Origin: Chamaesiphon sp.
Lineage (GTDB): Bacteria; Cyanobacteriota; Cyanobacteriia; Cyanobacteriales; Chamaesiphonaceae
Assembly (NCBI GenBank): GCA_965246715.1
Contig: CBDFFH010000027.1
Span: 64,001 to 128,000, forward strand
Length of the DNA: 64,000 nucleotides
Reading direction: 5' to 3'
This document shows, piece by piece, positions 4,298 to 60,960 of the stretch. The notes under the pieces were generated by a model. It was not told the origin of the DNA and made no database searches. It saw only the letters and a list, made by a program, of their open reading frames with translations. Position numbers and translations under genes: made by a program. Within the stretch, counting starts at the first letter, position 1; each line of letters starts with the position of its first letter.

Positions 4298-4852
4298 TCA
4301 ACGATCCAAGTGAGTCTGTGCAAAACTTTTGACCATACGAACAACAGGAAGAACGCTTTCGTTGGGAAGCGAAATATCAAATTGCTGACTCACGTTATAG
4401 CCGAATCTGCGATATAACGGTTCCCCCGCCAACGTGGCAATAATCTCAATAGTCTTAAATCCAGCTTCTAATGCTGCTTCACACTGTTCCATAATCTGGC
4501 TACCAATCCCTCTTCGTGCCCACTCAGGATGAACAAAGAACGCACGAATCTTTGCCGAATCAAAGCTTGGATCGAGCAACCGATCTTCTTCCGCCTTCTT
4601 AGCCCGATCGGCTCCATAAAGCGTTTTTCGTTTACTCCAACCACCACAGCCGATAATTTGGTGCGTGTTCTCGGCTATAAAGTAAGTTCCATCCTGAATC
4701 AGTTGGCTGTCAACACCAAAAACGGTTCCCAATGCTGCTTCAATTTGTTCTGACGTGTAGTAGGTTGCTTGAAGTGTTCTAGCGGATTCTAGAATCAGAT
4801 TCGCTAAAGCAGCGATGTCTTCTTGGCGAGCTAGACGAATCTGTATGTCCAT
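4298..4852 (-). CDS. GNAT N-acetyltransferase
   Basis: FFVHPEWARRGIGS; ATG 4852 preceded by GGAGGT. Confidence 0.9.
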   Translation of the reverse strand: MDIQIRLARQEDIAALANLILESARTLQATYYTSEQIEAALGTVFGVDSQLIQDGTYFIAENTHQIIGCGGWSKRKTLYGADRAKKAEEDRLLDPSFDSAKIRAFFVHPEWARRGIGSQIMEQCEAALEAGFKTIEIIATLAGEPLYRRFGYNVSQQFDISLPNESVLPVVRMVKSFAQTHLDR

Positions 4853-5064
4853 TCTACCTCCTGCATGAATAGTAAAAGAGTGGGACAGTAATCGATACAG
4901 TCGATCGAACAGAAGATCGCCCACCCGCAGGGCATTAGCAACTATCGTCTATGCCATGAGATTTTAGGTTTAGGCGATCGCGGCTAGTTTACCAATCTCG
5001 ATTTCGACATCTTTAAATATCATCACAGCGATGACACGATTAACTTCGTTGTTCATTTTCAAAC

Positions 5065-24350: not shown

Positions 24351-25283
24351 TTAGCCGATCGATGACTGGAGATGTTCGAGTGGCTCTATATTATGAAAAT
24401 GAGCAAAATCAATATACCGATTGCGATCGTCAACGATGTGAATGATATCGACTAGTCGGTGATTCAAAACGATATGATGCGCGCCATAAGTGTGGCGAGA
24501 ATGCACATTTTGCGAGACAGTTTCATCCATCCCGCTTAATGCTGCGATAATCTGCGATTGAGAAGCAATCAAAGATTCAGCCGAAAAACCATATAGGGGA
24601 CTGTGCTCGTCGATCGGGTGCATCAATGTCCACGGGAGTGAGAAAGTGGGCGTATGGGAACGCGATAACGACAGTTGATAAAATCGCCTAATCTGTTGCC
24701 CTTCTGTAGTAACTTCATCCCGACTGAGGTAGATCGTCACCTGTGCTTCGAGAATCTGATTGCGCCGCTGATTGCCAGCTCGAAACATTAAAGTGGGCAG
24801 ATCGTTGTGGGGTGCAATTACGGCAAACTTACTAAAAATCACCTTGGCTGTCGGACGCGAAAACCGCGCAAAACTAATTCCCGTCAATAGTGCGAGTGCA
24901 AACAAACTGGCGATCGATTCGATCGTCACGATCGTATTGGCATAGGTAGTTTGCGGAGACATCACCCCATAACCGATCCCCGCAAAAGTCTGAACGCTAA
25001 AGAAAAAAGCATCTTCAAAGGAGCCAGGTTTACCATTGAGGATGCCATTTCCTCCCAGCAGAAATAGCCCCGCAAAGATAACATTCAAGCCCAAGTATAA
25101 ACAGCAAACAATAACGATAAAACCCCACCAAGGCAATGTCAACATCAAGTGGTAAGGTTCTTGCCAGTTTCGATACCATTTGTTGAGTCCCTGCACTGAA
25201 AATAGCCCATCTTCAACCTTGATATGGAGTCTATTTCTTGAAGATAATTGCGGCGATCGAATGCCAATTTTGGGAATTTTCAT
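24351..25283 (-). CDS. KirBac-type inward rectifier potassium channel
   Basis: DAFFFSVQTFAGIGYG pore, FARFSRP, HPIDEHSPL. Confidence 0.9.
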   Translation of the reverse strand: MKIPKIGIRSPQLSSRNRLHIKVEDGLFSVQGLNKWYRNWQEPYHLMLTLPWWGFIVIVCCLYLGLNVIFAGLFLLGGNGILNGKPGSFEDAFFFSVQTFAGIGYGVMSPQTTYANTIVTIESIASLFALALLTGISFARFSRPTAKVIFSKFAVIAPHNDLPTLMFRAGNQRRNQILEAQVTIYLSRDEVTTEGQQIRRFYQLSLSRSHTPTFSLPWTLMHPIDEHSPLYGFSAESLIASQSQIIAALSGMDETVSQNVHSRHTYGAHHIVLNHRLVDIIHIVDDRNRYIDFAHFHNIEPLEHLQSSIG

Positions 25284-25284
25284 T

Positions 25285-25689
25285 TTAATTATTAGCAAGG
25301 ACTGAGGTAAATTTAGCGAAGTAGGCAGGATCGGCGATGCGATTAATTAGCAACATTTTTCCATCACTATTCACAATAGATCGATCGCCGAAATGTCCTT
25401 CTAACTCTTCACCGCTGAACTTAATCCGAATCTTCAAGACTTCATGATAGATAATGCGACCTGGGTAGACTTCAATCGGATTATAAGCCTGAGCCGATTT
25501 AAACTCGATTTTGGCAAAGATTGATTGCCAAGTTGTTGGGTTACAGAAGAATGCCGAACCTTCATGCGACTTATCATTGACAATATAAGCCAGTCCTGGA
25601 TGGAAAAGTTGGGCAATCGCCTGCGAGTTAGTTTGTTGTAATGCCGCAGCATAATCGTTAAGCCATTGCATACCAATAGATGTGGTCAT
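25285..25689 (-). CDS. Hypothetical protein, possibly NTF2-like fold
   Basis: 134-aa ORF in operon; WLNDYAAAL..IAQLFHP. Confidence 0.6.
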   Translation of the reverse strand: MTTSIGMQWLNDYAAALQQTNSQAIAQLFHPGLAYIVNDKSHEGSAFFCNPTTWQSIFAKIEFKSAQAYNPIEVYPGRIIYHEVLKIRIKFSGEELEGHFGDRSIVNSDGKMLLINRIADPAYFAKFTSVLANN

Positions 25690-39502: not shown

Positions 39503-42500
39503 TTAATCCCTTTCCTGTTCTGGCTGAATTGGCACCGTCACCTTTACCTCAGTGCCATGTCCGATCTGGCTATCGATCGCGAATTTGCCGCCGAGTCGAT
39601 CGCTGCGCTGCTGCATTCCAATCAAACCAAAACCACTACTGAGTTGTTGGGGGTCAAATCCCGCTCCATTATCCTGAATTTGCAGTTGAATCCGATCGGG
39701 CGCGTAGGTGAGAGTCAGGATTGTTTGGGCAGAAGCGTGGCGAAGGGCGTTGGTGAGTGCCTCTTGTCCGATTCGGAGCAGATTCATCCCGACATCGGGT
39801 GGCAGGGTGTAAGGCGTACCGACAATTACCACCTCCACTTGAATCGAGGTTTCGATCGTCTGCTGGGCGGCCAGACGCTGGAGAGTCGTCGCGAGCTGGC
39901 GGTAGTCTTCGGCTTCGGGCTGCAATGCCCAGACCGATCGTCGGGCTTCTGCCAGACCTGTTTTTGCTAGATCTTGGGCAAGCGTAATGCAGGCTTGAGC
40001 TTGCTCTGGATTGCGGGCGAGCAGACGGAGCGCGGCTTCTAGCTGCATCTGAATACTGGTAAAGGATTGGGCAAGAGTGTCATGAATCTCGCGGGCCATG
40101 CGGTTGCGTTCTTCACCGATCGCGGCTTGTTTACCCTGCTCGGCTAGGCGGGTGAGTTGGATCGCCAGTGCTGCCTGATGGGTGAGGACTCGGACTAACG
40201 TCAAATCTTCGGACTTATATTCTTGGTGTTGGGTGCAGCGGAGGATAATGCTGCCCAGCAAGGTTTCCCCAAAAAACAGGGCAGCTACCAGGATCGTTTT
40301 GATGCCGTGCTGCTGGTTATGGGTGTAGTAAGCTTCATAAGCTGGATTGTTGGCAAACTGCTGGAGATCCTGAATCAGCATCTTTTGTTGCCGCAGCACT
40401 TGCAGATACTCGGTATTCCACTGCCGCAGAAAGTTACGATCCCTGCCCAAATGAGGGATTTGGCTCCCCTGCTGAATCTGTCCATCCTCATAGTTGAGGT
40501 GCAACAGAGTCGTGTTTTGAGATTCGTCATACAGCCAAATGCTGCCAGCGTGTCCGCCCAACTGCTCGACGATCTCTCGTAGCACGATGCCTAGAAAGTT
40601 GTCTAAGACAGGAGCGGCAGCTAAGGCAGTTAACATGCCGACTAATGCCTCAGCTTGTCCTTGCATCGAGCGTTCGGCGCGCTGACGTTCCATTGCTTCT
40701 ACGTGTAAGGAATCATTCACCGTTGACAGTTCTGCGGCGCGTTCTAGTGCAACTTCTTCCCGCTCTAACAACACTTGTCGCTCTGCTTCCTCATGCTCTC
40801 GGTTGCGACGTTGACGCTCGATCGCACTGCCAAGACAGTTAGCCACTGTCCGTAATCCCGCCATTTCTGCTGGCGTGCGGTGCTTGGCCTCTCGACAGTC
40901 ATCAAACGCCAGAATCCCCCACCACTGCTCATTCACCCAAATCGGCACGACATACAGGGACTTCACTCCCAGAGCTTGGAACGCCGCATGTAGCGATCGA
41001 TCCCACTCTTCTAGCAATCCGCCGAATCCATTTGTTTGCAGAAATCCCTCGAAGAAGCCTTCCATCTGTCCGCGCGTATCGACTTGTCGAGTGTGCGAGA
41101 GTTGCCTAACCGTGCCAGGACTCGTCCATTCGTAGAGCAGGTTGTGATAGCGCGAGAATGGGCGAGAGGCATCATCAAATAGGCTTTCTAGCACTTTCGT
41201 CCGATCGGTCTCCAGACTCTCACCCAGAATTTGTAGTGCGGTGTTAACGGCGCGATCGAAATTCTCGATCGTTAGCAAGGCATCTGTAGCTTGAGCCGTC
41301 GCTTCTAGAATGCGGTAGCTGCGCTGCAATTCGTAACTGCGCTCTCTCAATACTTCATTCACTCGTTCCAATTCGGCGGCGCGTTCTTGTTCGGCCCCAC
41401 GTTCTACAATCAATAGATCGACTAATTGCTGACGGTGCAGTGCTGCCCCAATACTCTCAGCCGCCGTAGTCAGGACATCGATCTCCTGCTGGCTCCAGTG
41501 ACGAGCACTCACACAATCATCAAAACTGACACAGCCAACGTAACGTCCTTCAATGAAGATCGGTACCACACCCGTTGATTGAATGTCCAGCTTTTCAAAC
41601 TGAGAGCGTGTCACCGCTGGCAACTCGTCGATCGTATACCAGATGGAACGACCCGTATGAAGGGGTTGAATCAAGACCTGAAAACCCTCGTTGTCTATCG
41701 CCATCATGCCAACCGCTGCATGATCCGAAATCTCTGGAGCCGTCCACTCCTGCTCGACGTAGTGGGTTAGTCGTTGCGTTCCTGGAGCTTGACGTTCGAG
41801 AATCAGCATTACCCGGCTCATGTTTGCCACGTTCCCAACTGCCTGTAAAGCGGCGAGAATCGCAGTATTGACATCCTCAGCTTCTAACAGATCTTTGGCG
41901 ATTTGAGCAACGACTGAGAGTAAGCGGTAGCTTTGCTGCCCATCATGGGTAAGCTGTTGCAATTCCTCAACAAATTCCTGTTCGGCGCGGTGAGTCGCTT
42001 GCTGGGCGCGTTGACGCTCAATCTCACTGCCAATACAATCAGCCGCAATCTTCAACACCGCTAGTTCTGCCAGACTGCGATGTTTTGCCGCTCGACAGTC
42101 ATCGAACCCAATCGCGCCCCAATACTGACGCTCCACAAAAATGGGAACAAAGTGTAGTGCTTTCAAACCGAGTGCTGCCTGTCCACTCCGAAACGGCTCT
42201 GGCATATTTTCCAGCAGACAGCTAACGCCTTGCCCTTGACTCAAACCTGCATACCACTCCTCAATTCCCTCATAACTCCCCTGAGCTAGATCGGGATGCG
42301 CGATCTGTGGGATCGCATGAGGCGAAGTCCATTCGTAGAGCAGTCGCCACCAGACGGATGAGGAGTCAGAAGGGTTGTCAAAATTCTCGATTACTCCCAC
42401 GCGATCGGTATCTAATGCTTCCCCCATGACTTGTAGCGCGGCATTCACTGCCACATCTAGCGGCGCGATCGTCAGCAAGGCATTGGCAACCCTTGCGGTA

Positions 42501-42688
42501 GCTTCTAACAGACGATGCTCCACAGCGGGATCGTTGGTGGGGTGCGCTAGATCTTGGGTAGCTCCGACCGATCGCAGGTCTTCAGGCAAACGCGATCGTA
42601 GATTAGCGTTCTCTTGCTCCAGAGCTGCAAGTTGTTCTTGTAGTTGGGCAATTTCCTCGTGGAGTGGATCGATCGATGGTTCTAGTAT
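39503..42688 (-). CDS. Multi-GAF sensor histidine kinase (HisKA_3)
   Basis: Three repeated YEWT..FDDC GAF domains plus a fourth GAF, ERNRMAREIHDTLAQ, DNGAGF, GFGL; start uncertain (TTG 42589 or ATA 42688). Confidence 0.92.
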   Translation of the reverse strand: MLEPSIDPLHEEIAQLQEQLAALEQENANLRSRLPEDLRSVGATQDLAHPTNDPAVEHRLLEATARVANALLTIAPLDVAVNAALQVMGEALDTDRVGVIENFDNPSDSSSVWWRLLYEWTSPHAIPQIAHPDLAQGSYEGIEEWYAGLSQGQGVSCLLENMPEPFRSGQAALGLKALHFVPIFVERQYWGAIGFDDCRAAKHRSLAELAVLKIAADCIGSEIERQRAQQATHRAEQEFVEELQQLTHDGQQSYRLLSVVAQIAKDLLEAEDVNTAILAALQAVGNVANMSRVMLILERQAPGTQRLTHYVEQEWTAPEISDHAAVGMMAIDNEGFQVLIQPLHTGRSIWYTIDELPAVTRSQFEKLDIQSTGVVPIFIEGRYVGCVSFDDCVSARHWSQQEIDVLTTAAESIGAALHRQQLVDLLIVERGAEQERAAELERVNEVLRERSYELQRSYRILEATAQATDALLTIENFDRAVNTALQILGESLETDRTKVLESLFDDASRPFSRYHNLLYEWTSPGTVRQLSHTRQVDTRGQMEGFFEGFLQTNGFGGLLEEWDRSLHAAFQALGVKSLYVVPIWVNEQWWGILAFDDCREAKHRTPAEMAGLRTVANCLGSAIERQRRNREHEEAERQVLLEREEVALERAAELSTVNDSLHVEAMERQRAERSMQGQAEALVGMLTALAAAPVLDNFLGIVLREIVEQLGGHAGSIWLYDESQNTTLLHLNYEDGQIQQGSQIPHLGRDRNFLRQWNTEYLQVLRQQKMLIQDLQQFANNPAYEAYYTHNQQHGIKTILVAALFFGETLLGSIILRCTQHQEYKSEDLTLVRVLTHQAALAIQLTRLAEQGKQAAIGEERNRMAREIHDTLAQSFTSIQMQLEAALRLLARNPEQAQACITLAQDLAKTGLAEARRSVWALQPEAEDYRQLATTLQRLAAQQTIETSIQVEVVIVGTPYTLPPDVGMNLLRIGQEALTNALRHASAQTILTLTYAPDRIQLQIQDNGAGFDPQQLSSGFGLIGMQQRSDRLGGKFAIDSQIGHGTEVKVTVPIQPEQERD

Positions 42689-43005
42689 CCTCTTTTTCTC
42701 CTGCTTTCAGAAGCTAAGCTGACTTACAGACTTACGGTTCGCGATCGGGAACCCTTTGCCACCAATTCAGAAATGTTATCTACCATATTAGTCTCAATTG
42801 AGCGATCGAGTTCTCAGCGAATGTAACAAAGTGTGGCACCCCAAGTCCGTCGATGTCTTTGGTCGTAATCTCTAGTTAATCTAATAGGGTTTGGAACAGC
42901 GTGCCTATCCTATTACAGCTCCTAAAGCTCGCGATGTCCATGTCTTTTAACAAAATATTAGTATTTTTGTTCTATAATAAACTTGAAATCTAATTTCTTG
43001 CGCTC

Positions 43006-43227
43006 GTGATGAATACATTTACGATCTATAACGCTAAATCCCAGTTCTCCAAATTATTATCCCGCGTGGAACTGGGGGAAGAAATAATCATTGCCAATCG
43101 AGGGATTGCAGTTGCTAGGTTAGTTCCTGTGGAAAATAAGCGATCGCGTAGTCGCAGCATGGGTGTCGATCGCGGATTGTATTACATCTCCTCCAGTTTC
43201 AACAATCCGCTGCCTCCTTATTTATAA
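43006..43227 (+). CDS. Phd/YefM antitoxin
   Basis: IYNAKSQFSKLLSRVELGEEIIIANRG..VARLVP. Confidence 0.9.
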   Translation: MMNTFTIYNAKSQFSKLLSRVELGEEIIIANRGIAVARLVPVENKRSRSRSMGVDRGLYYISSSFNNPLPPYL

Positions 43228-43278
43228 GCACTACTATCCTCGTATTTCAACTAAACAAGAGTAAGGAATCGATCGCGA

Positions 43279-43765
43279 GTGAAAATACTAATCGATGCTC
43301 AGTGTTTTTTGTGGTGGTTTGTCGAACCCGATCGCTTGAGTGCGGAAACGATCGCCGCCATCTCTGACGAAACTAACTCCCTCTGGTTTTCAGTCGCCAG
43401 CGCGTGCGAGCTGACAATGAAGGTGTCACTGGGAACGTTATCGCTGCCCGAACCGTTGGTGTAGCCTACCGTAGGTAATCGATTCGTATCTTGCCAGCCG
43501 GATGAAAAAGTTGAGGGCACAATTTTTGGATATTCGAGCAGATCAGGTATTAAAGATAGCAACGTTGCCGCTAGATCGATTCGATCTGATCCTCCTCGCC
43601 CAAGCACGAGTCGAGGGGATGACCCTTGTTACTGCGAACCCAGATCTGGCTAATAACGATGTGGAAATCCTCCTCAACGACTCGGACGAATGCAACACCA
43701 ATAGAATGTCCGGGAGTCAAAGAGCCAGAACCGAATTAGCGTCAGGCAAAAGTCTAAATCGATAG
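43279..43765 (+). pseudogene. vapC: PIN/VapC toxin disrupted by a 22-bp micro-element
   Basis: Two ORF halves matching the intact copy at 59100-59564. Confidence 0.9.
43456..43477 (+). mobile_element. HIP1-core-targeted micro-element (22 bp, frameshifting)
   Basis: CCG^TTGGTGTAGCCTACCGTAGGTA^ATCGATT, versus the empty site CCGATCGATT in the paralog. Confidence 0.92.
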
Positions 43766-43870
43766 TCGCCAAGTTCGGGAACCGTCGCTATTAATTCAAG
43801 GAAACTCAACGGAGATTGCAAGATCCGAAAATCGAACTCAACATCGACCGTAAATTCGCACACATTGAAA

Positions 43871-43915
43871 GAGTAGTTAGTTAGCTATGTGGCTGACTAA
43901 CTACTCCATTTTTTT
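43871..43915 (+). terminator. Rho-independent terminator after the TA operon
   Basis: GAGTAGTTAGTTAGC..GCTGACTAACTACTC plus T-run; conserved in the other arm. Confidence 0.7.
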
Positions 43916-44206
43916 CATTAATTGTAAAGTTTTATTTGCTATTCGATCTGACCTTGCTTATTTTTGTCAATCGTCTATAATCTCATGCGAATAAAAGAGG
44001 GGTTGAATTTAACTTAACCAACTAATTAAGTCAAGTTTATACTGCTTTGAGCACGGCTGTTATTGCTTAATTCCCGATCGACTGAATCTTGGATTAAAGG
44101 CAATTGCAGCCTAGATTTTTATATCTAAACCGTTCGTAGTTTGACGTGCAATTGCTCGAATAAATCGAGTCAAAACTTATCTTCCTTGAAAACATAGAGT
44201 GTCATC

Positions 44207-44632
44207 ATGAACTACACCACTTCACTAAGCAAACCTAGAAATAAAATTTCTTGGAAATATATTCAGTATGCCTTGATTTCCTGTTTCTCCCCAATTATTT
44301 GGGGATGGAACTTAGCTCCTAGAGCTGATGCCGCTCCAATCTACGATGCTTTCGTAACAGTATCGACTACTAAGATTGCAACGATAATGGCTGGCTTCCC
44401 AGTCGCAGGGCCGCTATTTACGACTCTGTTTACTGCGATTGTCAATCTGATCCCTTGGTCTGTATTGCTGATAGTCGGTGGTATTGTCATCTGGCAAGCT
44501 TATCTGGGATATCAGGAATACGATCGAGAAAACTTTTCTGGGATAGTTAAACCGATGTTAAATATCATCGTCCTGGTAATTCTCGTCATTGCCACAGATA
44601 GAATTATCAACTTTATATTTACTGGTGCTTAA
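44207..44632 (+). CDS. Putative VirB2/TrbC-like pilin (copy 1)
   Basis: Signal-like N-terminus (ADA) and hydrophobic helices; upstream of virB3/4-like genes. Confidence 0.55.
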   Translation: MNYTTSLSKPRNKISWKYIQYALISCFSPIIWGWNLAPRADAAPIYDAFVTVSTTKIATIMAGFPVAGPLFTTLFTAIVNLIPWSVLLIVGGIVIWQAYLGYQEYDRENFSGIVKPMLNIIVLVILVIATDRIINFIFTGA

Positions 44633-44676
44633 TTCAATTAAATGTCTAATAGCTGTGACAGCTTTTACCTAATTAT

Positions 44677-44970
44677 ATGGAAAGAAAAACGCGAATCGAA
44701 GTCAATAGAGCATTGAGACGGAGAGCGAAGATGATGGGTATCCCTCGCGATGTCGCGATCGTTTTGGCACTAATCGTGGTTTTCTGTCTATTTCTAGGAT
44801 ATTTGAAAGTTCCTGGTAACATCGTTACAGCTATTTTTGTCACTTTATTTTTCACTGCCATACTCTCTCTCAAGGATGTCCTAGCAAGAAACAGGGAACC
44901 AAAAAATTACACCAGAGGATGTCTAAATTATCGTTCGCCTAGCGCTCCCTTGGGGAAATCGCCGCTTTAA
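44677..44970 (+). CDS. Putative VirB3-like membrane protein (copy 1, degenerate)
   Basis: Two TM segments; lacks GMAD of the paralog; 24-bp insert near the C-terminus. Confidence 0.55.
   Translation: MERKTRIEVNRALRRRAKMMGIPRDVAIVLALIVVFCLFLGYLKVPGNIVTAIFVTLFFTAILSLKDVLARNREPKNYTRGCLNYRSPSAPLGKSPL
44934..44957 (+). mobile_element. HIP1-core-targeted micro-element (24 bp)
   Basis: CG^TTCGCCTAGCGCTCCCTTGGGGAA^ATCGC; removal gives YRSP as in the paralog. Confidence 0.75.
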
Positions 44971-45040
44971 GAAAAATTAGTTTGCCACCGCTTCAGTGAA
45001 TTAATTACTTGGTTTAAATCCTTTAATTTGTTTATCGGTT

Positions 45041-45108
45041 ATGAAAAATAAAGAAGGCAAAAAATCTCAAAAGCCACAACGACAGCTCAGAAAAATAAAG
45101 CATGAAGG
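45041..45108 (+). pseudogene. 5' stub of a VirB4-like gene cut by an IS
   Basis: MKNKEGKK..LRKIKHEG versus MKNKESNK..LRKIRHKG of 55049-57838. Confidence 0.8.
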
Positions 45109-46122
45109 GGGAGCATCCCACTTTTTATTCGATCGACAGAGGTAAATCTTATGTACTATTATGATGGTTGAGGAATTTGCCTCTAAATGGAAGCAGATTG
45201 ACAATAATTTTGAGATAATGAAGTCAAGCCAAGTACATTAAAGTAGTGTGATGAGTCCAGAAGAACGAGAAGAGATTGCAGCATATACTGAAGCAATTGC
45301 TAAAATCCTGTATAAAAATACGCCGATAGAACAACTAACTAGCTTAGGGAAAATAGAAGAGGTGGTGCGAGATAGAATGCAAGAATATGTGATGCCGTCA
45401 GTCGGAATTTTTTTATCAAAAATGTCACCGGAGAAAGCGGTGGATACGAAAGACATATTAAAAGCATCATCGGAGAGCTAGTGATTACAAGTAATCAGGC
45501 CAACAAGCTGGAAGTAAAAAGTCATTCACAAATTAGCCCTTACTTAGAAGCATGTTGTTTGAGGATAAGTGCATCAGTTTCTTATGAAAGGACGACTGAA
45601 GAAATTAAATATTTAACGGGAATAGAAATATCGAAAAGTACTCAACAGAGATTGATTCATCGACAAGAATTTGAATTGCCACAAGCTGAATCAATTGTCG
45701 CAGAATTAAGTGTAGATGGCGGCAATATCCGAGTCCGAACATTAGAAGGAGAGCCATCTAGCTGGAAAGGGTATAAAGCAACAGTATTGCATGGACACCA
45801 GGTAATTGCAGGTTCATTCCAAGAAAATGATGTGCTTATTAGCTGGGTAAATAGTCAAGAGTTAGCACCGATTGTTACTTGCTTGGGTGATGGACATGAT
45901 GGCGTATGGAATATTATTCAAGAATTTGCACCGACTGGAGAAAGAAGAGAAATTCTTGATTGGTTCTGGAGCGATTGAATCTACGATTAAGCAGATAGAT
46001 CGTCGCACAAAAATCTCTGGAGCGCAGTGGAAGGCTGAAAACGTCCCTCAAGTACTAGCCCATCGCTGCGCTTACCTTAATGGGTTAATTTGCGATCGCT
46101 AAATAAAAAGTGGGATGCTCCC
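45109..46122 (+). mobile_element. ISKra4-family IS, internally deleted
   Basis: 21-bp perfect TIR GGGAGCATCCCACTTTTTATT; VDGG, LGDGHDGVW, GSGAIES motifs; no TSD. Confidence 0.85.
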
Positions 46123-54005: not shown

Positions 54006-54027
54006 TTCGCGTAGCGTACCGTAGGTA
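54006..54027 (+). mobile_element. HIP1-core-targeted micro-element (22 bp)
   Basis: TCG^TTCGCGTAGCGTACCGTAGGTA^ATCGA. Confidence 0.85.
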
Positions 54028-55048: not shown

Positions 55049-57838
55049 TCAATGAGTAATAAGGGTTAGTTCGTCGATCCGACCGTTGGTGGCTGCCGCG
55101 CGAGCTTTGCGCTCTTGCTGCTCGTCGATATTGTTAGCTGTGAGAGCCACCAACGAGGGCGGGAGATAAATTCGCGCGGGAGTGAAACGATCGTCTATTT
55201 TGAGCAACCATTGGCTAGAGCAAGTGGCTTTATCTGGCTCAAAATCTTTTCTGGCATTGTTCGATGCCAATGCTTCGGGGACTCCCAGCAATTCGGGATT
55301 GCAATACTCAGCCAGAGAGTCGCCAATTCTGCCGATGAGGTGATACGAGAGCGCGTCCTTGATTTTTTTCCCACCCGCACTCTCGAACACGCTACTCGGC
55401 TCCTGTGCCGCAATCATCAGGCGCATTCCAGCCTTGAGTCCGTTTGCTGCGACCCGCCCGACGCAGAGTGAGAGCGGATCGAGATCGAAGGTAATCGAGG
55501 CTTCGTCGATAAATAATAGAGAACCTTTTCCACTTGCGGCGGCAATCGCTCGCCGCATTGCCGCTGCGTACATAATCGTGCCGAATACCGCAGCATCATC
55601 GTTGTTGCTGACTCCCCGCATGGCGATGGTCATGAGGGGACTATCGAGTTTGACGGAACTCGGAGAATTTATAGTCTTACCGTAGGAGCCATCGATCCAC
55701 CGTTGGAGTTGCAATTGAATCGTACCAAGAGTCTCGATATCGTCAGCGGTTGCCTCTGGAAGATTTATTCGTTCGATCGTGCAAAACCGCTTGAAGTCTG
55801 AGAGGGTGGGATAATCTTGCCAAGCTCTAGAGCCAATCCCCCCATTAATCGCGCGTTCGTACCGGATTAAAATCCGCTCGTCTTTGAAGAAGTTTTTCAG
55901 AGCGGTGGTTAGCATCGAAATGACCTTGCTGCTACTGGTACCCTTGAGTTCGCCTTTCCAGCCCAAAACCATTGCAGTCAGAATTTGAAGGATAAACTCT
56001 TCATTCTGTCTTTTCATGTCCTCGCGCGTCTCTGGATCGATATCTTCAACAATTAGCGGAGTCTCAAAGAAGTTAATGGAGTCGTTAAAGACATCGATAT
56101 AAGCCCCATCCATGTATTCGGTAAAAGCCTTGAACGAACTCGCCTCTTTTGTCGGCGGCTGATCGAGAATCGTCACTGGAATTGCTTGACTCAGTGCTTT
56201 GTGAATGTTAAATGCGGCATATAAAGTCTTACCAGAGCGAGTTTTACCCCAAATAGCGGTGTGTCCCATGTGTGTGAAAGGGTCGAAATAGACGGGCGAA
56301 CCGCCCTTATTCGCAATAAATTCGATTCCAGATTTATGCGCGTTAACCGTCGTTACCATTGGGAAGTAAGCAGCGACGATTTCGGGGCGTTCGCGATCGC
56401 GTCTGTCGCGGACATCCACCAGCATCGACTTACCGTAAAATGGTAAAGATGATACCCACAGCGAATCAGAAGTATCTACTTCCAGTAGTACAATTGCTGG
56501 CGATCGAAAATGCGAGCAGAAGTCACGAGCGGCAAAGTGCATCTGCTCTAGAGTTTCTCTGTAGACAAACATACAGAGCGAAAATTCGACACTCGTATCG
56601 CCACCGATTAACATCCGCTCGGTTTCGAGGGCTTCTTTCAGCTCCTCGTCTGCCAAAACGTCAACTTGTCCTTTTTCCTCTGTTTCTTTCTTGCGGTAAT
56701 GATTTTGGCGGATGAGTTGTTGGTTGTTGTAACGAACGCCGAACTGTTCGGGACGCGATAGCTCTAGCACGATTCGATAATCGTAAGCCGAGCCGATTGC
56801 CATCAAATTCGAGAGATAATGCAGTTGAACTTCCTGGTACGACTCATTACCCGCTTCTTCAAAGACTTTGGGTTGAAGTTTCAGCAGCAGACTGCCGACG
56901 TATCGACGATCGACTTTTACATGGTCGCGGTTGGAAGAGGGAACGGCAGAAGGATAGCGCATCATTACTGTAGTTGGATGCAGTTGCGATCGCACGTTTT
57001 CGCCAATCGTGCCTTTTTGGAGATTAAATTCGACGATCTGTGGTGCTGGTTCTGGTTTGAGTCCTTCTACCCGATCGTTAAACCGATTTAGTTCCTGCCA
57101 GCAATGCTGCCAAACTTCCTCACCAGACAGGGGAGTGGCTTTGAGTTGAAGTTTATCTCTAAATAAATTCGACCACTCAAAAAAGCCCTGCTCGTAGGCA
57201 TTTAGGAGAATTGCATCGATCGTTTGTTGGCGAACTTCCTCGATCGAACCCGATAGCCTTTGATACCAAAGGGTACTGAATTTGATGACTTTCTCAATTA
57301 ACTTTTGCTCTCGCGCTCCTAAGTTAGGGGTAAAAGTGCCCATCAAAAATACTTGGTGAGGGCGACGTTGACCGCTAATGTCGAGATTCTGTAAAATCAA
57401 CATTTCCTCAGCGATTAAGGGCTGAGATTGGGCTGATGCTGTTTCAAATTGAGCGATCAATTCATTCAGGCGAACATTACGATCGCCGAATGATTGAAAT
57501 TCAACGCGCAACTTCTCACCGATCGGTAATTCGTGTCCCAGAGATGAAATTGAGTTAATAATCGATCTAGCCGCTACTTCGCCAAAATCATCGTGAATGC
57601 CTGGGCATTCCCAAATAAATCGCAATTTGTATTCTGGCTTGTCAATTTCATGACTGGTATTTAGCAATAAAGCACCAACTTGAATACCATTTGGCAAGGT
57701 ATAGTTGATGATACTTTGCAAATGAGTTGAGGTTTCCAGAGGATAGAGCAGTTTCTTTTTGTCGCTTAAACCTTTATGTCTGATTTTTCTTAGTTTTAGC
57801 TTTTGGCTCAGAGGTTTATTGCTTTCCTTGTTTTTCAT
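55049..57838 (-). CDS. VirB4/TraC-like conjugation ATPase
   Basis: 929 aa; GKTRSGKT Walker A, LLFIDEA Walker B, AAQEP. Confidence 0.8.
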   Translation of the reverse strand: MKNKESNKPLSQKLKLRKIRHKGLSDKKKLLYPLETSTHLQSIINYTLPNGIQVGALLLNTSHEIDKPEYKLRFIWECPGIHDDFGEVAARSIINSISSLGHELPIGEKLRVEFQSFGDRNVRLNELIAQFETASAQSQPLIAEEMLILQNLDISGQRRPHQVFLMGTFTPNLGAREQKLIEKVIKFSTLWYQRLSGSIEEVRQQTIDAILLNAYEQGFFEWSNLFRDKLQLKATPLSGEEVWQHCWQELNRFNDRVEGLKPEPAPQIVEFNLQKGTIGENVRSQLHPTTVMMRYPSAVPSSNRDHVKVDRRYVGSLLLKLQPKVFEEAGNESYQEVQLHYLSNLMAIGSAYDYRIVLELSRPEQFGVRYNNQQLIRQNHYRKKETEEKGQVDVLADEELKEALETERMLIGGDTSVEFSLCMFVYRETLEQMHFAARDFCSHFRSPAIVLLEVDTSDSLWVSSLPFYGKSMLVDVRDRRDRERPEIVAAYFPMVTTVNAHKSGIEFIANKGGSPVYFDPFTHMGHTAIWGKTRSGKTLYAAFNIHKALSQAIPVTILDQPPTKEASSFKAFTEYMDGAYIDVFNDSINFFETPLIVEDIDPETREDMKRQNEEFILQILTAMVLGWKGELKGTSSSKVISMLTTALKNFFKDERILIRYERAINGGIGSRAWQDYPTLSDFKRFCTIERINLPEATADDIETLGTIQLQLQRWIDGSYGKTINSPSSVKLDSPLMTIAMRGVSNNDDAAVFGTIMYAAAMRRAIAAASGKGSLLFIDEASITFDLDPLSLCVGRVAANGLKAGMRLMIAAQEPSSVFESAGGKKIKDALSYHLIGRIGDSLAEYCNPELLGVPEALASNNARKDFEPDKATCSSQWLLKIDDRFTPARIYLPPSLVALTANNIDEQQERKARAAATNGRIDELTLITH

Positions 57839-58660: not shown

Positions 58661-58949
58661 GATGACACTCTATGTTTTTAAAGAATATAAGTTTCGACTC
58701 GATTCGTTCGAGCAATTACCGATCGAACGATAATAGCTTTTACATGAAAATTTCAGATCGCGCTCGCCATTAATCTAAGATTTAGTTGACGACAATCGAA
58801 CGATAACAGCCATATTTCGAGTAGAATAAACCTGACTTAATTAGCTGGTCAGGTTAAATTCATCCCCTCTTTTATCCGCATGAGATTATAGACGATCGAC
58901 AAAAATAAGCAAGGTCAGCTCGAACAGTAAATAAAACTTTACAATTAAT

Positions 58950-58994
58950 AAAAAAATGGAGTAGTTAGTCAGCCGCATAGCTAACTAACTACTC
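58950..58994 (-). terminator. Rho-independent terminator after the TA operon (copy 2)
   Basis: Same stem plus T-run on the - strand. Confidence 0.7.
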
Positions 58995-59099
58995 TTTCAA
59001 GGTGTGCGAATTTACTGTCGATGTTGAGTTCGATCGTCGGATCTTGCAATCTCCGTCAAGTTTCCTTGAATTAATAGCGACGGTATCCGAACTTGGCGA

Positions 59100-59564
59100 C
59101 TATCGATTTAGACTTTTGCCTGTTGCTAATTCGGCTCTAGCTCTTTGACTCACGGATATTCTATTTGTGTTGCCTTCGTCCGAGTCGTTGAGAAGGACTT
59201 CTACATCACAATTAGCCAGATCTGGGTTAGCCGTAATCAGGGTCATCCCCTCGACTCGTGCTTGAGCCAGCAAAATCAGATCGAATCGATCTAGCGGCAA
59301 TGTTGCCAGCTTCAACACTTGATCCGCTCGAATGTCTAAAAATTGTGCCCGCAACTTTTTCATTCGACTGGCAAGATACGAATCGATCGGTTCGGGCAGC
59401 GATAAAGTTCCCAGTGACACCTTCATCGTCAGCTCGCACGCGCTGGCAACCGAAAACCAGATCGAATTAGTTTCGTCAGAGATGGCGGCGATCGTTGGAG
59501 CACTCAAGCGATCGGGTTCGACAAACCACCACAAAAAACACTGGGCATCAATTAGTATTTTCAC
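59100..59564 (-). CDS. vapC: PIN/VapC toxin
   Basis: ILIDAQCFLW..SVASACE..K..LG.L..FD..LLAQA..LIT. Confidence 0.85.
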   Translation of the reverse strand: MKILIDAQCFLWWFVEPDRLSAPTIAAISDETNSIWFSVASACELTMKVSLGTLSLPEPIDSYLASRMKKLRAQFLDIRADQVLKLATLPLDRFDLILLAQARVEGMTLITANPDLANCDVEVLLNDSDEGNTNRISVSQRARAELATGKSLNR

Positions 59565-59614
59565 TCGCGATCGCTCCTTACTTTTGTTTGGCTGAAAGAT
59601 CGGGAAAATAGGGT

Positions 59615-59836
59615 TTATAGATGAGGGGGCAGCGGGTTGTTAAAACTGGAGGAAATGTAGTACAATCCGCGATCGACACCCATACTGCGACTGCGCGATC
59701 GCTTATTTTCCACCGGAACTAACCTAGCCACCGCGATCCCTCGATTGGCGATGATTATCTCTTCCCCTAGTTCCACGCGGGATAATAATTTGGAGAACTG
59801 GGATTTAGCGTTATAGATAGTAAATGTATTCATCAC
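59615..59836 (-). CDS. Phd/YefM antitoxin
   Basis: Differs from 43006-43227 by one residue. Confidence 0.9.
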   Translation of the reverse strand: MMNTFTIYNAKSQFSKLLSRVELGEEIIIANRGIAVARLVPVENKRSRSRSMGVDRGLYYISSSFNNPLPPHL

Positions 59837-60263
59837 GATCGTAAGAAATTAGATTTCCAACTTATTATAGAACAAAAATACTAGTATTTTCTTAAAAGAC
59901 ATGGACATCGCGAGCGTTAGGAGCTGCAATCGGATACGCACGTTGTTCCATCCCCTATTAGATCCCACATTCCGCTGTTTCGACGGTTAAACTAAGCGAT
60001 TCTCTCAAGGGAACGGCTCATCTTCAAAACTGGACTTTAAACTTTAGGTTCGTCCTGCTCCTCAATGTTTAGGTGCTAGTCATGTATACCACTATGTTTT
60101 TTGTCTAACCCATTAAAGCTAAAGTACTCGATCGACCCCCCAATCAGCCCGTTTAAATTTCGCTGTAAAAAGTTCATCCGAATTGCTGGTGCGCCCTGGG
60201 GATCGGCAGATGGCAGGCGATCTGCATCTCGATGTTGCAGGTCTAGAATATCAGCCGATTCAA

Positions 60264-60402
60264 TAGACCTCCTGCGAAAGTATTTTAGCTATCCTTTGAT
60301 ACCAATCATTTCGAGCATTATTAACTAATCATAAAAGATTAACTAAATATGGTGACAGTTATAGGTTCTGTCGATCTTTCCAGGACTTTCGCAGGAGGTC
60401 TA
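60264..60402. mobile_element. MITE (139 bp)
   Basis: 18-bp perfect TIR TAGACCTCCTGCGAAAGT / ACTTTCGCAGGAGGTCTA around an AT-rich non-coding core. Confidence 0.8.
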
Positions 60403-60960
60403 ATTTGTCACCGATGGAGATTCGGCAGCCACCTCAACTGGTACGACATCATGGAAATGTTTGTAGTCCAAATATTGATCGCCATTATCAGCTTTAGACA
60501 CCAAATCGACAAAGCGGTAATTCCAGAAAATGTCTTGGGGCGCATAGGTATGAGGGGCATACATCATCTGGGTAACGGTTTCATCTACGCCACTGAGCGT
60601 CACCACGATCGTACTATTGGTGTTCTGTAAATCTGTGGGTGTCACTCCATACAGTGGGCTAGCTGTATCGATCGGGTGCAGTGCCAGCCACGATAGTACA
60701 AAACTTAGCGATTGGTTGCGAACCAACCGCAAGTCATGAATCCGACGAATATATTGCCCTTCGGCAGTCAGCTCATCTCGCAGTAAATACACCTTGAGCT
60801 GTGCTTCTAAAATTTGATTGCTGCGCTGATTTGCCGTCCGAAAACTTAAAGTGGGCACTGCTTCGTGCGGTGAGATCGTGGCAACGTCGCTAAACGCCAC
60901 GCGCGCAGTCGGGTGGGAAAATCGCGCAAATGATAAGGATCGCGCCAATAGGAATACCAC
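60400..60960 (-). pseudogene. KirBac cytoplasmic-domain fragment (no pore)
   Basis: Similarity begins at LSFARFS; paralog of the C-half of 24351-25283. Confidence 0.82.

Follow-up and report, generated by a model that had tools for sequence, protein, structure and literature searches.

A 22-nt two-hairpin element of a family related to SDR5 interrupts one of four vapC-like genes in a Chamaesiphon-like genome

Introduction

Small dispersed repeat 5 (SDR5) of the Nostocaceae was reportedly described in Nostoc by Elhai et al. in 2008; we take it to be 21 nt long, presumably with a two-hairpin fold that shows compensatory changes. PMC4390886 places its insertion at the bond joining bases 3 and 4 of HIP1 (GCGATCGC), and a 2018 paper (PMC5861425) found no SDR-like repeat outside the Nostocaceae. 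Two other systems are among the closest known. Passages of PMC6006769 and PMC5027513 describe IS200/IS605 elements as single-strand elements that "peel and paste", and the former has HUH Y1 enzymes acting via single strands on both IS200/IS605 ends and REPs. REPs and REPINs are short hairpin repeats spread in trans with RAYT, according to portions of PMC3116915 and PMC3733652.

Here we describe a 22-nt insert in the window (the whole 64,000-nt stretch of DNA analysed) and the genome-wide family to which it belongs. The family uses the same bond as SDR5 (CG^ATCG) and has the two-hairpin fold with compensatory changes presumed for SDR5. In contrast, it is 22 nt long, hence frameshifting, with 23-25-nt sisters, against 21 nt; it accepts CGATCG in any octamer; and it is abundant in a genus outside the Nostocaceae, to which PMC5861425 confines such repeats. 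We filed it apart from SDR5 because the length and the stated range do not fit, although the two are probably homologous. A search of the open-access literature found no description of such repeats outside the Nostocaceae.

Like IS200/IS605 elements, as the cited passages present them, the family shows no target duplication, hairpins on one strand and oriented insertion by a short fixed sequence; unlike them, it has no internal transposase, is about 30-fold smaller and has no autonomous partner that we could find. With REPs and REPINs, as portrayed in the sections cited, it shares short hairpins and a genome carrying RAYT-like genes. It differs in lacking a fixed GTAG tag, in occurring mostly as singlets at a fixed palindromic target and in being frequent in coding DNA when in frame, and the local REPs are other sequences. 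Membership of the REP/REPIN class was rejected: instead of GTAG-tagged inverted doublets flanking RAYT, we found variable loops, and the REPs that flank RAYT differ.

Results

A clean 22-nt insert splits CGATCG in the left vapC-like gene

We aligned positions 42900-44100 with the reverse complement of 58750-59950 (features in Table 1). The results revealed a single gap between the left and right vapC copies, 22 nt at 43456-43477, flanked by CCG and ATCGATT; the remaining gaps in the two-copy overlap were single bases, all outside genes. The flanks and every coordinate reported by a first-pass annotation of this DNA held, and the insert was the clean 22-bp block at CG^ATCG that it had described, with no irregular indel. 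There was no target duplication, and the insert boundary is unique, since element ends and target share zero bases. The element consists of TT, a 3-bp stem with a GTA loop and a 4-bp stem with a GTA loop, and differs from the common variant by one C>T change, which makes a C-G pair T-G. As the same annotation had stated, the insert supplies an in-frame TAG and a frameshift: the left gene now reads CCG TTG GTG TAG and ends ...LPEPLV* after 61 residues, and 22 nt additionally shifts the frame.

Table 1. Features of the window that bear on the insert
Feature	Position	Strand	Remarks	Basis
22-nt two-hairpin micro-element	43456..43477	+		Alignment and family search
Split target hexamer CG^ATCG	43454..43481	+	Flanks the micro-element; no duplication	Alignment, family, homologues
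Left vapC-like PIN gene	43279..43765	+	Stop after 61 codons via the insert; no further disabling change
Left Phd/YefM antitoxin	43009..43227	+	Intact; 72 aa, like most paralogs
141-aa ORF without family match and VirB3-like ORF	44207..44970	+	Left T4SS-like module
Degenerate 24-nt family member	44934..44957	+	In frame, close to where the left virB3-like gene ends (3')
Left virB4 start stub and ISKra4-like element	45041..46122	+	Stub 45041-45108, cut by element 45109-46122 with 21-nt inverted ends
Second 22-nt family member	54006..54027	+	Intergenic, right module; paralogous site at contig C27:187029 empty
Intact VirB4-like ATPase	55049..57838	-	Right module
Right vapC-like PIN gene	59100..59564	-	154 aa; empty site 59388/59387
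Right Phd/YefM antitoxin	59615..59833	-	Intact

One of four vapC-like copies is pseudogenised

Contig C27 carries four copies of a vapBC-virB3-virB4-like module, three of them empty at the insert site. The site is also empty in six copies from five relatives, one of which has a different junction sequence. The locus is a true filled/empty pair and the insert a mobile micro-element, as had been proposed. The further claim that insertion followed the duplication held in part. The insertion does postdate the divergence of the copies, 9/9 other homologues being empty at this site, but "the duplication" overstated the case for four copies that are 86-91% identical. They stand as far from one another as from copies in other species, which fits ancient paralogy, or separate acquisition of the modules, better. 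Judged by the 24-nt virB3 insert that it has in common with the left copy, locus L111, whose vapC site is empty, is a closer comparison for that copy than the right paralog. Bootstrap values of the vapC tree were 33-64, and the tree was left aside in ordering the events.

The hit copy compared with the others gave a dN/dS of 0.13 (9 pairs), and comparisons between intact copies (36 pairs) gave an identical value; its private changes comprise 8 synonymous and 4 non-synonymous substitutions, with no second lesion. This equality and the missing second lesion indicate that the insertion is recent. The antitoxin is intact, as first annotated. The left virB4 retains about 23 codons before the ISKra4-like element, with no VirB4 match beyond. 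At another copy, L137 (G000:C27, about 181200), a one-base insertion frameshifts the antitoxin while the PIN ORF stays open, and virB4 is frameshifted too; an assembly error is possible there. Because the left virB4 is cut by an IS and L137 shows the reverse state, the loss can be explained without toxin-antitoxin logic. Neutral decay probably accounts for the knockout, and loss of the gene is likely harmless.

The pair resembles VapBC in having a Phd/YefM gene upstream of a PIN gene and in retaining D6, E44 and D95, as does the PIN subfamily among 56 protein homologues. It departs from VapBC in a 51-nt intergenic gap, a missing HHR segment, A in place of T7, N at the fourth acidic site (both changes shared by the subfamily), a 25-residue tail and linkage to virB3/virB4-like genes where flanks are visible. 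In one VapC studied in PMC4229260, T7 is required and an N variant relies on a glutamate three residues on; the matching residue is leucine in the present subfamily. With three of four acidic residues present, the toxicity of this subfamily is unproven. The "vapC knockout" first annotated is thus correct for the gene, one of four copies being pseudogenised, and unproven for a toxin. A PDB sequence search gave no PIN match, only chance matches (E about 0.7); PHROGs matched 0/7 proteins, and Rfam returned one chance match only in 42500-45500.

The insert belongs to a genome-wide two-hairpin family

The first-pass annotation had missed that the insert is one member of a large family, related to SDR5, that is spread over the whole genome. 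In this genome (6.1 Mb, 55 contigs, Chamaesiphon-like), the insert has 1, 6, 33, 58 and 75 copies within 0, 1, 2, 3 and 4 mismatches, respectively; the exact variant at 43456..43477 is the single occurrence. CG and ATCG flank 62 of the 75 copies with at most 4 mismatches. A shape-only search (TT, 3-bp stem, 4-bp stem, loops unconstrained) returned 55 matches between CG and ATCG, compared to 0 in one 5th-order Markov control genome; the copies and this control rule out a chance origin. The 22-mers of the shape-only search carry GNA in the first loop in 49/55 cases and in the second in 53/55.

With the second hairpin relaxed (requiring CG^ATCG and no fewer than 3 of the 4 outer pairs of the second stem), the family comprises 224 elements of 22, 23, 24 and 25 nt (69, 9, 134 and 12, respectively); the 21-nt class has only 3 matches here. 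A looser census by first hairpin gave 425 matches, 166 of them without ATCG at 19-30 nt and many of these nested in other repeats. The first hairpin retains GCGNAGC. Since this pattern seeded the search, part of its conservation follows from the method, but the shape-only search recovered GNA loops as well. The outer pair of this hairpin switches between G-C (154) and C-G (64), and the middle loop base varies (GTA 90, GAA 61, GGA 29, GCA 20). In the unfiltered second stems of the 24-mers, 86% of positions were paired over 67 distinct sequences, compared to 50% (maximum 57.5%) in 2000 arm swaps, and the 134 elements contain 84 distinct second stems. These compensatory stem changes support the two-hairpin fold. 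The nearest-neighbour folding energy of the insert was no better than that of shuffles (z -0.35). GCGNAGC is, in the section of PMC13037366 consulted, an unusually stable DNA mini-hairpin, far weaker in RNA for the related GCGAAAGC.

The copies are clustered (110/215 within 20/159 windows). Elements are enriched within 10 kb of relaxase/VirB4 loci (19/224, against 1.8% of sites), although these loci are not independent and the clustering by conjugation genes may only reflect weak selection. Runs of adjacent-copy orientation (71/148 here; 56/99 in the first 100 of 185 places of genome G020) were not significant in either genome.

The target is a hexamer entered in a preferred orientation

The target is the hexamer CGATCG. 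The full HIP1 octamer GCG^ATCGC accounts for only 14/224 elements (background sites: 9.9%), and TCG^ATCGA for 56/224. Orientation is biased at asymmetric sites, with 51 elements at TCG^ATCGC and 11 at GCG^ATCGA; further asymmetric pairs were biased as well (20 vs 4 and 18 vs 2), and three other pairs were not significant. This bias argues against capture at symmetric breaks. The octamer densities of the genome, 458 and 757 per Mb, agree with the Chamaesiphon values in the available part of PMC4390886, where TCGATCGA predominates in the genus.

Copies also enter other repeats. Several nested members (G000 C5:17571, C36:129813, C20:17513 and others) entered after the G of a GNA hairpin loop, and from these the target rule may be "CG then loop" instead of CGATCG alone. 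A composite repeat, about 200 bp long and containing several hairpins, occupies 66 places in G000; in 26 of them it harbours a family member, joined at a non-ATCG sequence, and the other 40 are empty; the element therefore also spreads by riding a larger repeat. At the virB3 site of the 24-nt member (44934-44957), three paralogs read TTCGCC, not ATCGCC, which would be a synonymous variant or else the trace of slippage when an element was lost. The 24-kb paralog (G000 contig C27, about 22776-22628) carries, within a few bases of this virB3 position, a 148-bp insertion of another composite repeat.

Empty sites and repeated hits

A paralogous site was present in the genome for 44/224 elements: 28 were clean and empty, 14 only filled, and 2 had other small gaps. 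Among the 28 gap-0 empty sites, 16 read CGATCG, 9 were one base off and 3 were other sequences. The 111 filled sites taken from other genomes (109 loci) included 97 without an ortholog in this genome; at 10 of the 14 that had one, the site was gap-0 and empty. Two site pairs were filled by different family members (a third candidate pair, which did not involve an element, was left out).

At the protein level, the P59/I60 junction at which the insert lies is interrupted in homologue P0020 by LAKPLPWR, which matches exactly the translated sequence of a 24-nt member present in 2 copies in this genome. P0015, P0020 and P0022 have an 8-residue insert at a second junction, also at the protein level and among the 56 protein homologues. 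A metagenome scan with the vapC protein yielded 1 locus among 210 candidate stretches.

Frameshifting lengths are depleted from open reading frames

Long ORFs served as a proxy for coding status and contain 68% of CGATCG sites (2036/2982 sampled). Elements lay in long ORFs in 12/69 cases at 22 nt, 0/9 at 23 nt, 63/132 at 24 nt and 4/12 at 25 nt; 22-mers were significantly rarer there than 24-mers (Fisher P = 3e-5, the copies not being fully independent). Among the ORF-borne 24-mers, 61/63 leave the frame open. A TAG-forming loop was found in 0/8 in-frame 24-mers in the stop-prone phase, compared to 51/124 elsewhere (P = 0.02). Since frameshifting lengths are rarer in ORFs and TAG is absent from the stop-prone phase, the inserts are translated, not spliced, and are purged when harmful. 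Frameshifting copies persist mainly where genes are dispensable.

Occurrence in other genomes

The 22-nt pattern occurred in 26/26 other genomes of the genus, 4/10 of the sister genus and 2/24 others. A wider pattern matched 72/151 genomes of the order and 43/80 genera, with 79/151 genomes lacking a match and 0 matches for a reversed-pattern control. Among the pattern matches listed in named genomes, 60/80 are labelled Chamaesiphon. One match (L025) falls on a 2.7-kb contig from a MAG labelled Bacteroidota; this contig is likely cyanobacterial and mis-binned. In the Nostocales, a 21-nt insert with the same bond and the same first hairpin was present in 5/5 genomes tested (9-179 copies), these five having been chosen for a 22-nt match. 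Compared with the common 22-mer, the 21-nt variant TAGGCGTAGCCCACCGTAGGT has changes at two positions and in the last base. Its length suggests that this Nostocales family is SDR5, the shared first hairpin serving as a proxy for the published consensus.

Discussion

The data establish the family and the bond it targets, the filled/empty pairs, covariation in the stems, purging from coding sequence and redundancy of the gene. On this basis we favour, with moderate confidence, the following reading. The insert is a member of an SDR5-like family at CG^ATCG, likely placed there as folded single-stranded DNA by an enzyme acting in trans, and it has recently disrupted a redundant vapC-like gene within a defunct secretion-system module, likely at no cost. 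Insertion of a folded single strand in trans is suggested by the lack of duplication, the unique bond, DNA-type loops on one strand, conservation of shape over sequence and the orientation preference. The folding strand would be the one with the GNA loops; it would be peeled out as a folded single strand and pasted into single-stranded DNA exposed at a replication fork or during conjugative transfer. The joining enzyme, presumably encoded in trans, would be of HUH type, with a Y1 transposase from the IS200/IS605-RAYT group as the most plausible choice. Within this reading, an HUH-type mobiliser is a candidate that we stop short of calling probable.

The genome has six Y1 matches and four relaxases. 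None of the six Y1 loci is bounded by a two-hairpin element, and no autonomous element sharing the ends was found in the genome, only 4 orphan right ends. Family elements lie close to the three RAYT-like loci, whose own REPs, however, differ from them in sequence; RAYT was rejected as the mobiliser, its proximity being explained by copies riding inside REPIN spacers. The RAYT-like Y1 genes with GTAG-type REPINs lie at G000 C36:40500-42100, C21:185500-186900 and C34:103600-105200, with old family copies in or near the spacers. A lagging-strand comparison gave 133:88 by raw GC skew on draft contigs with weak skew. It gave 96:72 (P = 0.08) with clusters collapsed and coding strand corrected, and the effect was absent for 22-mers and with non-coding skew; the bias, suggestive on raw skew, is thus not robust.

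Among other explanations, the absence of duplication would equally be expected of target-primed copying, in which an opposite-strand nick (CGAT^CG) primes on an RNA or ssDNA copy through a 4-nt ATCG match, a reverse transcriptase or repair polymerase extends it, and the same neutral knockout results. The strongly conserved ATCG right flank (144/220 perfect elements at CG^ATCG), 22 RVT_1 matches in the genome and the diversity of second stems, which fits error-prone copying with fold-back repair, all agree with it. Yet GNA triloops are a DNA, not an RNA, feature in the part of the literature cited above, the excess of G-T over A-C mismatches (19 vs 11, P = 0.2) is not clear-cut, copies are also inserted where ATCG is lacking, for instance into the hairpin loops of other members, and zero RTs are linked to the element; we consider this route unlikely. 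Still less probable is a host pathway tied to methylated CGATCG, in which HIP1-linked uptake or recombination would splice nuclease-surviving folded fragments without a transposase. The predominance of TCGATCGA in the genus (PMC4390886, in part) counts for it, as does the report, in bioRxiv 10.1101/2024.09.10.611283, that methylated HIP1 raises transformation and integration. The target is, moreover, the methylase hexamer and not an octamer, the two symmetric octamers accounting for the 14 and 56 elements given above. Such a pathway sits poorly with the 79/151 order genomes without a match, whereas HIP1 is general in cyanobacteria, and with nested insertions at hairpin loops that are not CGATCG; to our knowledge, no activity joins 22-nt pieces without homology.

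An adaptive knockout, the insert being selected for disarming an addictive toxin while the antitoxin stays, would suit the intact antitoxin and the purifying selection that lasted until recently (dN/dS 0.13). We regard it as very unlikely: three paralogous toxin ORFs are still open, one beside a frameshifted antitoxin, the module was already broken at virB4, 11 other 22-mers likewise lie in long ORFs, and in the subfamily T7 is missing and the fourth acidic residue is replaced by N, positions discussed for another VapC in PMC4229260. We give almost no credence to an assembly artefact, a 22-nt repeat being shorter than any read and the exact variant single in the genome, or to a micro-intron removed from RNA to leave a working gene. 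Depletion of frameshifting lengths from ORFs and avoidance of TAG in the stop-prone phase speak for translation of the inserts, and an RNA-spliced micro-intron was rejected because that depletion by length is not frame-neutral. Integron-type recombination was rejected by reasoning, the junctions having no shared base, and a MITE because terminal inverted repeats with target duplication were not found.

Returning to the folded single strand, a bolder version, which we hold as doubtful, is that the 21-25-nt pieces are the smallest true transposons: GCGNAGC-capped ssDNA read by shape and pasted by HUH enzymes (Y1 or relaxase) into CGATCG on transferred or replicating strands, in half of the order's genomes. 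If true, they would yield 8-residue protein loops or gene knockouts according to one or two bases of length.

The single vapC knockout is of little importance and the family of some. How elements below 30 nt move has been a question since 2008, and the present genome shows them abundant outside the Nostocaceae, with a target defined as the CGATCG hexamer and an orientation preference. The 22-nt and 24-nt lengths form a natural experiment, and one gene junction hit twice independently offers a ready donor/target pair for a mobility assay. For annotators across cyanobacteria, the elements are a source of short in-frame insertions and pseudogenes.

Other features of the window

A 36-nt near-perfect palindrome, possibly a terminator or operator, lies between vapC and the 141-aa ORF in both modules (43871-43906 and 58959-58994). 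The window also contains an inverted pair of GNAT acetyltransferase genes (1283-1915 and 4298-4924), about 75-78% alike, and two inward-rectifier potassium channel-like genes (24351-25298 and 60400-60960), the second of which is a C-terminal part only and adjoins the right module.
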